This document shows, in pieces, positions 38,859 through 61,789 of a stretch of DNA of 64,000 bases (positions are counted from its first letter, which is position 1; every line of letters starts with the position of its first letter). Under the pieces are notes generated by a model, which was given only the letters and a program-made list of their open reading frames with translations, was not told the DNA's origin and ran no database searches. This stretch comes from a virus. The position numbers were made by a program, and so were the translations under genes. Location of the stretch: the IMG/VR virus record IMGVR_UViG_3300039355_000071; one strand, 5' to 3'.

Positions 38859-40364
38859 TTGACAGAGAATAAAGAAAAAAATAATTATTGTGAGTTAAGT
38901 GTAATTGAGCTTTGTAGTGGTATTGGTGCGCAGATGAAGGGAATTGATAATACTCATCTATTTAATGCAAATATGATTGCAACAGCAGATTTAGACAAAG
39001 AAGTAGTAGTTAGTTATGCTGCAATGCATTGTGGTTTGACTAATGAGATGATTGAAAACTATGAAGATTATCCAAGCAAAGAAGAAATGGTAAGACAGCT
39101 TACAGATAAGAGACTTGGATATGATTTTAAAAAAGATGTTCCGTATGATTGGGAAAAACTTTCACGAAAGAAGAACAAGACAAAAGGTATTGAGAAATAT
39201 TGGTTAGCAGACCATATTTCACATAATCTTGGCGATATGATGCAGATTGAGTCACTGCCATATAGTGATTTACTTACATACTCGACTCCATGCACAGATT
39301 TGTCAATCGCCGGTAAACAGGAAGGATTAAAGTGGACATGTCATGATTGTGGTTGTGAATATGATCCATCAGAATTAGATGTAGATACTCGTTATACTTG
39401 CCCTAATTGTGGCAGTCACAACATTAAATCAACTCGTTCAGGTTTATTGTATGAAGTTGAGAGACTTCTTGTAAAAGCAAAAGAGAATAACACATTGCCA
39501 AAGTATTTGCTTATGGAGAATGTAGATGCTCTTGTATCAAAGAAGTATATTGACAGTTTTAAGGATTGGCTGATTCGGCTTGATAACTTGGGATATAACT
39601 CATATTATCAGACAATCAATGCAAAGAACACAGGTGTTCCACAGAATCGTAATAGAATCTTCTGTATCTCTATTCGTAAGGATATTGATACCAAGTCTTT
39701 TGAATTTCCACAGCCTTTTGACACAGGAATCAGATTAAAGGATTTATTAGAAACAGATAGCAGTGTTTTGGCGAAATATTTCTTATCTGATGAAGTACAG
39801 AAAAGACTTCAGATAACAGATCCAAAATTTAAAAAAAATATTGTTGGCACTACAAAACCTGAATTCAGAACTATCGGTCAGAGAGATTTAGTTTATCAGC
39901 AGGATTCAGTAATGGGTACTTTAGTGGCAACTGATTATAAACAGCCAAAACAGATTCTTGCAGATTCAAATAATATAAAAAGACTTTTTAATATTTATGG
40001 TGAAAATAAAGGAACTGGATTCGCAGGAAATGTTTGGGACAAAGATTATATTTCTCCAACAATAACAACATGCCAGGGAGGAAATCGGCAACCAATGGTC
40101 GAAGAAGATAGAGACAATTTAAGAGTTGTGAGAAAGCTCACACCAAAAGAGTGCCACAGGCTCATGGGATTCGATGATATTGATTATGAGAACTGTAAAG
40201 CAGTTGGAATGTCTGATACCCAGGGATATAAACAAAGCGGTAACAGTATAGTGACAACTTGCATCTCTTTGTTGATTGAGCATTTATATAAGGCTCAGTA
40301 TGACAATACATATATTTGTACAGATGAGAAGATGGCAAATTTTCATCAGCCACAAGTGGATTAA
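38859..40364 (+). CDS. DNA (cytosine-5)-methyltransferase with an inserted zinc ribbon
   Basis: Motif I ELCSGIGAQ, IV PCTDLSIAGK, VI ENVDALV, VIII QNRNRIFCISIRKD, X GNSIV. CHDCGCEY..CPNCGSH lies between motifs IV and VI. TTG start as annotated; the true start is uncertain. Confidence 0.75.
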   Translation: MTENKEKNNYCELSVIELCSGIGAQMKGIDNTHLFNANMIATADLDKEVVVSYAAMHCGLTNEMIENYEDYPSKEEMVRQLTDKRLGYDFKKDVPYDWEKLSRKKNKTKGIEKYWLADHISHNLGDMMQIESLPYSDLLTYSTPCTDLSIAGKQEGLKWTCHDCGCEYDPSELDVDTRYTCPNCGSHNIKSTRSGLLYEVERLLVKAKENNTLPKYLLMENVDALVSKKYIDSFKDWLIRLDNLGYNSYYQTINAKNTGVPQNRNRIFCISIRKDIDTKSFEFPQPFDTGIRLKDLLETDSSVLAKYFLSDEVQKRLQITDPKFKKNIVGTTKPEFRTIGQRDLVYQQDSVMGTLVATDYKQPKQILADSNNIKRLFNIYGENKGTGFAGNVWDKDYISPTITTCQGGNRQPMVEEDRDNLRVVRKLTPKECHRLMGFDDIDYENCKAVGMSDTQGYKQSGNSIVTTCISLLIEHLYKAQYDNTYICTDEKMANFHQPQVD

Positions 40365-59652: not shown

Positions 59653-59841
59653 ATGTCTTTTACAGTAGATTTTAGTTCAATAAGAACAGTTAGAGTTCAC
59701 AAAGAACAATTTGACGCAATAGACAATAAAGCAAATGTCGTAATGATTACTTGCATTGAGGATGGAAGAGTTATTCCATTCAATAGAGCTGATAGCGAAA
59801 AAGATAAAATTGATAGATTGAACAGGAATAGTGGAGAATAA
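59653..59841 (+). CDS. small hypothetical protein
   Basis: RBS TTGGAGGTATT. Confidence 0.4.
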   Translation: MSFTVDFSSIRTVRVHKEQFDAIDNKANVVMITCIEDGRVIPFNRADSEKDKIDRLNRNSGE

Positions 59842-59845
59842 CATT

Positions 59846-60589
59846 ATGGATAATTTAACACGTAGAGAAGAAGTAAATCTTCATGAAGCAATTCAGAAAT
59901 CTTTTCCTAAAATTCTTATCAAGGATCTGACAGAACATGAAAGAATCTGTCCTGTCTGTAATGGTCTTGGTATGATCATTGAAAACAATATTTATGGAAT
60001 CAAAGGTGACAAGTCCGAAGCTGCGAAACGAGAACCCTTCCCATATAAACATCAAGCACTTTCGTTTTGTGGAAGTTGTTTTAATGGTGTACAGATATTA
60101 TGTCCTTATTGTGGACAACCCTATGTAAATCAAGCGTATATGCATTGCGGCTGCGAAGGACAGAAGAAAGCCGATGAAGAGGAGAGAATAAAGAAGTGGA
60201 ATGAGAAAGTTTCTAAAGCAGTTCCAGTTGACGAAAAAGATGTAGACACAATGCTTTACTGTGAAGAGTTTGATGAGTATTACGATACTGTTGATGATTT
60301 CTTTTACGATTATTTTGGGCGTTATACAGATGAAGAATTTAATAATGATGGCAGACCTGAGAGATTATGGGTGTGCAGCGTGGAGAAGATTCATATTGAT
60401 GCTGATAATGTAGTTGACAATGCTTGCGAAGAGTTACATGAAGATGCTTATGAACAGTGTGATATTGGTGGTCTGCAAAATTTGTTAGATACCTGGTGTA
60501 AAGATCAGACAGGAGCTACTACATATTATCCATATTATAAGCAGTATGTAGAAATTGATTGGAGTGAATATGAAGATTGTAGCAGGTAA
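59846..60589 (+). CDS. multi-zinc-finger protein (247 aa)
   Basis: CPVCNGLG..CGSCFNG..CPYCGQ..CGCEG. Confidence 0.5.
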   Translation: MDNLTRREEVNLHEAIQKSFPKILIKDLTEHERICPVCNGLGMIIENNIYGIKGDKSEAAKREPFPYKHQALSFCGSCFNGVQILCPYCGQPYVNQAYMHCGCEGQKKADEEERIKKWNEKVSKAVPVDEKDVDTMLYCEEFDEYYDTVDDFFYDYFGRYTDEEFNNDGRPERLWVCSVEKIHIDADNVVDNACEELHEDAYEQCDIGGLQNLLDTWCKDQTGATTYYPYYKQYVEIDWSEYEDCSR

Positions 60590-60884
60590 TTATTTCGGTA
60601 AAAATATTCAGTTTGTATGTAGATGCTGCAACTGTGTATATGAAGTTGAATCAAAGGATGATTGGAATGTTCAGATGATATTTCCTAACTATTGTAGTTT
60701 TAAATATAAAGTTCCTGAATATGGAGTAACTTGTCCTAATTGTGGTCATGAAGAATATCTTGGTTGCGATCAAGATGACTTGATAGGAACTGAATCTGAA
60801 AACCTACACTGTCCTTGGATTCCATTATTAAAGAAGAGAGCAGATTGGAATGAACGATATAGGGTTGAGCCAATAAGAGAATAA
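60570..60884 (+). CDS. Cys-rich protein
   Basis: CRCCNC..CPNCGHE. Confidence 0.4.
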   Translation: MKIVAGNYFGKNIQFVCRCCNCVYEVESKDDWNVQMIFPNYCSFKYKVPEYGVTCPNCGHEEYLGCDQDDLIGTESENLHCPWIPLLKKRADWNERYRVEPIRE

Positions 60885-60903
60885 GTATTTGTGAGGTGAG
60901 TAG

Positions 60904-61127
60904 ATGAGAGCATACAAATGTGATGTTTGTGGTAAGTATTGTGAAGATTGTTTTGAAATTAATGATGATACATTTGATGTATTCCCATCAGATTTCGTTG
61001 ACAGAGGACAATATGATAAAAAAAGGTGGAAGTACGAGATTTGTGTTCTGAATGTTATGTAGATATTAAAAATTATATTCATAACAAAGTATTCAATAGG
61101 TTTAAGAAAGAGGAAGAATCGAAGTAA
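60904..61127 (+). CDS. zinc-ribbon protein needing a -1 shift at an A7 run (61018-61024) to join its two CxxC halves
   Basis: Frame 0 gives CDVCGKYC..DKK then junk and a stop at 61062. The frame reached by one extra A continues VEVRDLCSECYVDIKNYIHNKVFNRFKKEEESK to 61127. Confidence 0.4.
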
Positions 61128-61180
61128 AGATTCGATTCTTGCGGAAATTTTTACAGAGAATATAAGAATAGGAGGTACAA

Positions 61181-61789
61181 ATGGGAACACGAAATTTAAC
61201 AATTGTACATAGTAATGGCGAATATAAAGTTGCACAGTATGGACAGTGGGATGGGTATCCTGAAGGTTTAGGCGTACAATTGCTTGAATATCTTAAAGGA
61301 ATAAATATTAACGAATTAAGAAATTCAGTGAATGATTGTACATATTTGTCTAAGGAAGATTTTGATGAGATAAATAAAAATATTGATGAAGCAATGAAGG
61401 ATAATCCAAGATTTCCTTGGCAGAAGTTTTATCCAGAATTATCAAGAGATACAGGTGGAGATATTTTAAAGTTAATTATGTTTAAGAATAAAACAAAGTT
61501 GAAAAACTCATTAAACTTTGCAGCAGATAGCCTTTTCTGTGAGTGGGCTTATGTTATTGATTTGGATAAGAATACTTATGAAGTATACAAAGGTTTTAAT
61601 AAAGAGCCACTAGATGAATCTGAAAGGTTTTATTTTTTAACACCAATTGCAGAGAAAGAGTATCGAGAAAATCCCAAAGAATATTATCCTGTTAAATTTG
61701 TTACAGAATATAGTCTTAGTAGTCTTCCTGACGAAAAAGATTTCCTCGAAGATATTAGTAAAATCTGTGGTTTTGATGAGGAAGAGTAG
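61181..61789 (+). CDS. hypothetical protein (202 aa)
   Basis: RBS AATAGGAGGTACAA. Conserved upstream repeat. Confidence 0.55.
   Translation: MGTRNLTIVHSNGEYKVAQYGQWDGYPEGLGVQLLEYLKGININELRNSVNDCTYLSKEDFDEINKNIDEAMKDNPRFPWQKFYPELSRDTGGDILKLIMFKNKTKLKNSLNFAADSLFCEWAYVIDLDKNTYEVYKGFNKEPLDESERFYFLTPIAEKEYRENPKEYYPVKFVTEYSLSSLPDEKDFLEDISKICGFDEEE

Follow-up and report, generated by a model that had tools for sequence, protein, structure and literature searches.

A conserved zinc-ribbon gene split by a frameshift

The window analyzed here, a stretch of 64,000 nucleotides of viral DNA taken as a whole, contains a small plus-strand gene that is broken into two reading frames at a run of seven adenines (A7, positions 61018 to 61024). 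A Shine-Dalgarno-like motif, GAGGTGA (60893 to 60899), can be read from the sequence 4 nucleotides (nt) 5' of the ATG at 60904. The 5' part of the gene (60904 to 61024) runs from this ATG in frame 0 through codons 1 to 40 and the first base of codon 41 and includes the first zinc knuckle, C6-x2-C9 (60919 to 60930), alongside C13 and C16. In the A7 allele, frame 0 is read across the run as GAT AAA AAA AGG and continues into a read-through tail, RWKYEICVLNVM (61025 to 61062), that is closed by the TAG at 61060 to 61062. The resulting open reading frame (ORF; 60904 to 61062) encodes a truncated product of 52 amino acids (aa), with the C-terminal end ...DKKRWKYEICVLNVM*, that is identical to the public database entry DAH04865.1. 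The original prediction placed the end of this frame 14 codons after the A run; the count is 12 sense codons beyond the run, or 14 with the two AAA codons included. The 3' part of the gene (61023 to 61127) lies in the -1 frame, which is open for 33 codons, and specifies K41 to K74, followed by TAA; it comprises the conserved second knuckle (C48 at 61044 to 61046 and C51 at 61053 to 61055) and the predicted long C-terminal helix. The ORF list represents this part as an ORF from 61026 to 61127 encoding VEVRDLCSECYVDIKNY...EEESK. The two parts are joined into a 74-aa product, MRAYKCDVCGKYCEDCFEINDD...DKKKVEVRDLCSECYVDIKNY...EEESK, by one additional A or by a -1 shift within the run.

A search with the fused product identified 74-aa homologs that align over the full length (E = 5e-41 to 9e-38), and 26 of the 27 related viral loci contain a single, uninterrupted ORF, bearing out the original prediction that an extra A or a -1 shift at the run joins two zinc-ribbon halves. 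In the intact close relatives, the tract is either A8 (GAT AAA AAA AAG) or interrupted (GAT AAG AAA AAG, AAGAAAAA), and both forms encode DKKKVEV; relative to these, A7 is an out-of-frame (-1 nt) allele. Orthologs at approximately 50% identity are likewise single ORFs, with no A-run at the position of the tract. Between divergent in-frame haplotypes, the fused plus-strand frame has a pN/pS of about 0.1 to 0.17 and is under purifying selection. That the locus instead consists of two small independent genes, or of a minus-strand gene (ORF 60828 to 61235, 135 aa), merits practically no credence. Both plus-strand ORFs and the antisense ORF do appear in a mechanical list of ORFs, but all orthologs are single plus-strand ORFs of about 60 to 80 aa, the low pN/pS applies to the fused plus frame, and the GTG at 61026, from which the second half might be translated separately, has no ribosome-binding site. 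Inspection of the sequence ahead of this GTG found no motif comparable to GAGGTGA, and because of that, an independent start there appears unlikely. The minus-strand ORF, which spans the locus, was rejected as spurious; no homolog supports it, its openness is explained by AT-rich composition alone, and it enters a naive longest-ORF gene map only because the real gene is split. Comparison with orthologs had been proposed as a check that might reveal two separate genes; since the orthologs show one gene, that objection fails.

The family to which the fused product belongs comprises approximately 31 clusters at 50% identity, nearly all of them single proteins of 60 to 80 aa, as a profile search across 1.84 billion representatives showed. 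Among 20 diverse members that were aligned, Y4, C6, D7, C9, and C51 never vary, C48 shows at least 90% conservation, and C13 and C16 lack conservation. The conserved CxxC pairs are C6/C9 and C48/C51, and the tract therefore lies between the two knuckles. AlphaFold, when given a 5-sequence alignment, returned a pLDDT of 57; the repeat with the 20-sequence alignment gave the model used here, in which the protein forms one compact domain (mean pLDDT 94.9, pTM 0.75) with short beta-hairpins, a helix at residues 28 to 33, and a long helix at residues 49 to 73, the pLDDT being ∼97 both at the tract position and in the long helix. The fused protein matched no family in Pfam or PHROGs, a sequence search of the PDB yielded weak C2H2-knuckle matches only, and Foldseek found nothing in the PDB (E > 2) or BFVD beyond the protein's own ortholog. 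A distant blastn comparison against an annotated phage collection produced 3 hits covering 4% of the query and no annotated relative. The split ORFs are the halves of one conserved 74-aa zinc-ribbon gene, a class assignment that refers to the two family-wide conserved CxxC knuckles and comes with no match to a curated family or a solved fold. Like four-cysteine zinc ribbons (CxxC...CxxC), the family has two conserved CxxC knuckles, here ∼40 residues apart, and a predicted compact arrangement of beta-hairpins and a helix; unlike them, it has no Pfam, PHROG, PDB-sequence, or fold match except its own orthologs.

Two cysteine-rich genes, mutually overlapping, are located directly upstream and encode proteins of 252 aa (59831 to 60589) and 109 aa (60555 to 60884) with several CxxC pairs each; neither matches a family. 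Judging by their cysteine pairs, the genes between 59831 and 60884 form, together with the target gene, a small cluster encoding orphan, putative zinc-binding proteins. A further observation concerns the loci L001 and L007, between which synonymous divergence is ∼8-fold lower 3' of the tract (1 difference per 17.3 synonymous sites) than 5' of it (8 per 19.3). This pattern could reflect either a recombination boundary at or near the tract or a nucleotide-level constraint on the 3' half of the gene.

A hairpin with a 10-bp stem and a 7-nt loop (61114 to 61140; dG = -14.1 kcal/mol, z = -3.1) overlaps the 3' end of the gene. The stop of the shifted frame had been predicted to fall inside a terminator loop. 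The TAA at 61125 to 61127 indeed sits in the hairpin loop, whereas the label of terminator is weak, and the hairpin is either a weak terminator candidate or a cassette boundary. A canonical intrinsic terminator on the plus strand was unsupported: the T-run on that strand begins 8 nt past the stem, for which reason a terminator consensus scan called the hairpin on the minus strand only, and the stem contains a U.U mismatch in most relatives. In relatives L001 to L014 and L028 to L036, sequence and gene content diverge straight after the hairpin (positions 61141 to 61180 of the window), and the downstream genes differ between contigs. The 3' end of the gene together with the hairpin looks like a mosaic cassette junction.

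The genes neighboring the locus in the relatives (YorF, YorH, YopX, DnaB/primase, DNA polymerase III alpha, and SSB) indicate that the source is probably an SPbeta-like temperate phage of ∼120 to 156 kb, and in the relatives the prophage often lies within contigs that reach 1.2 Mb. RefSeq lists one allele, as a hypothetical protein of Agathobacter rectalis (WP_346991381.1). By this RefSeq name, the prophage would reside in Agathobacter rectalis-type gut bacteria; the conserved 37-mer used for the census described below had no match among the GTDB species-representative genomes. The flanks of L028 to L040 combine, in various ways, genes for Thg1-like, PAPS-reductase-like, and radical SAM proteins, RNA ligase with a KTI12/AAA kinase, PTH2, an nSTAND3 ATPase, and GIY-YIG and LAGLIDADG homing endonucleases. 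The prophage neighborhood of the locus is a highly mosaic accessory region.

Heritable tract-length polymorphism in excess of control tracts

To count tract lengths independently of the allele, contigs were collected by an invariant 37-mer located just 3' of the tract. This census comprised 24 contigs, among which A8 and AAGAAAAA were found 11 times each, A9 twice, and A7 not at all. Thus, 22 of the 24 contigs are in frame, and half of those carry the G-interrupted tract that encodes the same peptide. Larger numbers were obtained by exact protein look-up in a collection of 15 billion proteins. On the main background (F17/K20), the contig counts obtained in this way, which hinge on gene calling and uneven sampling and are inflated by clonal spread, with many runs coming from one large cohort, were 1 for A5, 26 for A6, 63 for A7, 553 for A8, 36 for A9, 2 for A10, and 0 for A11, that is, an out-of-frame share of ∼19%. 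The window's own background, marked by N20, is represented by A7 in 9 contigs (19 in the contig index) and by A8 in 6 (P0019). On the L014-type background, A7 was found in 1 contig, A8 in 11, A9 in 108, and A10 in 1; the out-of-frame share thus reaches ∼90% on one background. In terms of products, A8 encodes the 74-aa protein, A7 and A10 lead to ...RWKYEICVLNVM, and A6 and A9 lead to ...GGSTRFVF.

Contigs of the L014 type with A7, A8, A9, and A10, all from different samples, show 0 substitutions in the 1,000 nt upstream, the 114 nt of the gene, and the 1,000 nt downstream. Four tract lengths on identical flanks of ∼2.1 kb imply that the tract changes far faster than its surroundings. At least 4 protein backgrounds carry A7, and at least 3 carry A9. 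In a tree of the flanks built with the tract masked, the A7 contigs with N20 form a clade of 3 haplotypes that is sister to A8 contigs, and the A9 contigs form a clade of 2 haplotypes. Both alleles were found in prophages with differing flanking gene modules, and the sequences of the 3' half are identical within the out-of-frame lineages that were compared. The out-of-frame alleles are inherited and have spread among hosts. Other damaged alleles of the gene were also encountered among the database relatives, namely, a single-C deletion outside the tract (P0014, 1 contig), C16Y in combination with A9 (P0034, 11 contigs), C48R (P0001, 2 contigs), and a 56-aa form that has been rearranged (P0016, 1 contig). 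Against the number of tract frameshifts, lesions elsewhere in the gene are rare.

Other tracts of the same phage served as controls. An in-frame A8 tract in the middle of a gene for a C5 DNA methyltransferase (39831 to 39838) was present as A8 in 358 contigs and as A7 and A9 in 1 contig each (0.6% variants). No length variant in either direction was detected for the A7 tracts of two further genes, one encoding 80 aa (352 contigs) and the other 271 aa (51 contigs), and the interrupted tract of the target gene itself was ON in about 731 contigs and OFF in 3 (0.4%). The out-of-frame share of the target is roughly 30 times these control baselines. Similar mutation rates are expected for two A8 tracts, and therefore, out-of-frame alleles must be purged in the methyltransferase gene and tolerated or favored in the target. 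The methyltransferase gene (38859 to 40364; 501 aa; PF00145, E = 4e-49), which encodes a C5 cytosine enzyme, additionally carries an A7 tract five codons after its start (38875 to 38881) and encodes an inserted CxxC...CxxC segment with a weak match to HypA. The sole T8 run of the window, at 923 to 930, is apparently intergenic.

The phage genome otherwise strongly avoids A-runs in coding sequence. Across 122 crude ORFs from the whole window, 65% of the Lys codons are AAA, yet AAA-AAA accounts for only 11 of the 125 Lys-Lys pairs (∼53 expected), the favored order being AAG-AAA (55 pairs), and none of the 9 KKK motifs in these ORFs is encoded as A8. The target locus shows features of a phase-variable locus: a coding mononucleotide repeat in which a change of one unit switches the frame, several tract lengths on near-identical genomes, and variation above that of comparable tracts and of the technical background.

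Explanations for the A7 allele

In our estimation, the A7 of the window is, with a probability of about 75%, a genuine, inherited frameshift ("off") allele of the zinc-ribbon gene at a hypermutable poly(A) tract. The intact coding tract, GAT AAA AAA AAG, would behave as a hypermutable mononucleotide repeat at which strand slippage during replication, the presumed cause, repeatedly gains or loses A's, so that the natural population would contain A8 as the in-frame ON state and A6, A7, A9, and A10 as OFF states that are out of frame. Ordinary decoding of A7 would then produce the 52-aa protein, which would keep the first CxxC knuckle and lose C48, C51, and the C-terminal helix. Because of these losses, the four-cysteine site could not form, and the product is most likely inactive, although, with C6, C9, C13, and C16 retained, it might fold or act on its own. 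The tract may represent true phase variation that is useful to the phage or a tolerated mutational hot spot; at A7 to A8, it is shorter than classical contingency tracts.

The original prediction had offered two explanations, a homopolymer sequencing error or programmed transcriptional or ribosomal slippage, and is partly supported overall, in that neither of the two fits best. That the genome is truly A8 with an intact gene, so that A7 would stem from sequencing or assembly, we consider quite unlikely. Homopolymers are the classic sites of indel errors, A8 is the commonest allele, and the N20 haplotype is also known with A8; against this, the product combining N20 and A7 was assembled independently 9 to 19 times, from different runs and by MEGAHIT-, SPAdes-, and Logan-type pipelines, and the A7 contigs constitute a clade with its own linked substitution (N20) and three flank haplotypes. 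Length variants at the control A8 and A7 tracts of this phage amount to 0 to 0.6%. Furthermore, the closest relative (L006, with A8) aligns to the window over 3,677 nt at 99.86% identity and with one gap, and the window is therefore not generally indel-prone. A simple assembly error behind A7 is accordingly unlikely. Programmed recoding, in which the split would be the designed state and the full-length protein would normally arise from programmed slippage during transcription or from -1 frameshifting by the ribosome, as at phage tail-chaperone or dnaX-type sites, is highly improbable, even though the A-run is slippery, the -1 frame is open through the conserved second knuckle, and, in the A8 form, A_AAA_AAG is in frame and preceded by a GAGGA at a distance of 10 nt. 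Relatives do not preserve the split, given the predominance of in-frame contigs in the census and the interrupted tract in half of these, and distant orthologs lack any A-run. In addition, OFF alleles occur in both directions (-2, -1, +1, and +2), such that no single programmed shift would correct all of them. The frame-0 heptamer of the A7 allele, T_AAA_AAA or A_AAA_AGG, is noncanonical, A_AAA_AAG being present only in the in-frame A8. Folding of the 104 nt from the tract onward (61010 to 61113) was no better than that of shuffled sequences (z = 0.00), a search of 60700 to 61300 against Rfam returned no match, and the hairpin at 61114 to 61140, the sole one there, is ∼90 nt from the tract. 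Hence, of the hallmarks of -1 ribosomal frameshifting (a conserved two-ORF split, a zero-frame X_XXY_YYZ, and a downstream hairpin or pseudoknot), none was found. Productive transcriptional slippage typically requires runs of 9 nt or more (PMC1088944), kept in homologs; the run examined here is 7 nt long, G-interrupted in half of the close relatives, and absent from distant ones. Because the split is not conserved and a stimulatory structure is absent, conserved programmed frameshifting is unsupported. The GAGGA was also rejected as a frameshift stimulator: AGA-GGA is the preferred coding for Arg-Gly, with AGA making up 354 of the 526 Arg codons, and distant orthologs without the tract use AGA-GGY.

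A leaky, nonprogrammed form of rescue can be envisaged as well. According to this account, A7, like A9 and A10, would be partly on through insertion of an A by RNA polymerase or through a -1 slip of the P-site tRNA-Lys on AAA ahead of a rare AGG codon; we regard it as credible but doubtful. Both routes would yield the exact wild-type 74-aa sequence, including DKKKVEV, and the frame-0 codon after the tract is AGG, which is rare in this genome (39 of 526 Arg codons). The OFF alleles make up ∼19% overall on the main background and ∼90% on one background despite purifying selection, compared with 0.6% at the methyltransferase A8. Single-base insertions during transcription cluster in A/T runs, their frequency growing exponentially as the run lengthens (PMC5574713), and tssM1 is rescued in this way by an A11 tract (PMC4256274). 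Conversely, A7 falls short of the ∼9 nt from which slippage usually becomes productive or meets negative selection (PMC1088944), homopolymer runs are rarely associated with transcriptional deletions, the kind of change that A9 would require, there is no stimulatory RNA structure, and the upstream GAGGA is explained by preferred Arg-Gly coding. Negative selection on A/T runs alone cannot separate replication slippage from transcriptional slippage (Baranov et al., PMC1088944). Low-level rescue of the A7 allele by polymerase or ribosome slippage is thus possible; it would leave the out-of-frame alleles near-neutral, would explain their persistence, and can coexist with the interpretation of A7 as an inherited OFF allele.

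Given that inherited OFF allele, the tract might also be actively maintained, in a genome that otherwise purges A-runs from coding sequence, as a contingency switch by which the phage alternates between making and not making a small zinc-ribbon protein, perhaps also through polymerase or ribosome slippage on A_AAA_AAG that would set the ratio of the full-length protein to a four-cysteine N-terminal peptide of 49 to 52 aa. We put this forward as a speculative extension that is unlikely on present evidence. If such a switch is maintained, a prophage of gut commensals could hedge between two states of a putative host-interaction or antidefense function.

Implications and comparison with known systems

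For annotation, these findings mean that two short ORFs, one of which has been deposited as a "zinc-finger double domain protein," are best regarded as a frameshifted allele of one 74-aa gene, and as neither two genes nor a recoding site. The locus is a clean example from nature of a coding homopolymer that is hypermutable, in a prophage widespread in the human gut, with about one-fifth of the copies off, and a sister lineage in which a single synonymous A-to-G substitution has "locked" the tract provides a built-in control. It lends itself to studying whether simple-repeat phase variation is exploited by temperate phages and to quantifying polymerase or ribosome slippage on A7 to A10 in Lachnospiraceae.

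Several known systems bear comparison. dnaX-type -1 ribosomal frameshifting (reviewed in PMC5009743) acts on A_AAA_AAG. The A8 allele resembles such sites in that it reads A_AAA_AAG in frame with the Shine-Dalgarno-like GAGGA ∼10 nt upstream, and a -1 shift on A8 would result in the 49-aa product that the A9 allele encodes. The two differ in that the locus described here has no downstream stimulatory hairpin, its GAGGA is explained by codon preference, the A7 heptamer is out of phase, and no conservation points to use of the site. With the A11 tract of Citrobacter rodentium tssM1 (Gueguen et al. 2014, PMC4256274) and the A9/T9 sites (Baranov et al. 2005, PMC1088944), the locus shares an A-run directly before the frame break, where A's added to the mRNA restore the full-length product and both short and long products are possible. 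In those systems, however, the runs are 9 to 11 nt long and the interrupted arrangement is the conserved state, whereas here the run is 7 nt long, most relatives are in frame, and the tract is often G-interrupted.

The poly(A) tract of Listeria monocytogenes inlA (Orsi et al. 2010, PMC2831843), which frameshifts ∼1,000 times more often than the point-mutation frequency, differs in being located at the 5' end of its gene, with an 8-aa product, whereas the tract described here is in the middle of a prophage gene and separates the two halves of a zinc site; for inlA, the rate and reversibility of switching come from measurement, whereas the behavior of the present tract is read from sequence comparisons. 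The likeness is nevertheless extensive. In both cases, the setting is a low-GC Firmicute, a change of one A in a short poly(A) tract within the coding sequence toggles the protein between its full-length and truncated forms, and frameshifted alleles have arisen independently several times and occur in natural isolates. The phenomenon at the phage locus is of a kind already known, and the gene is new; it opens no new category.
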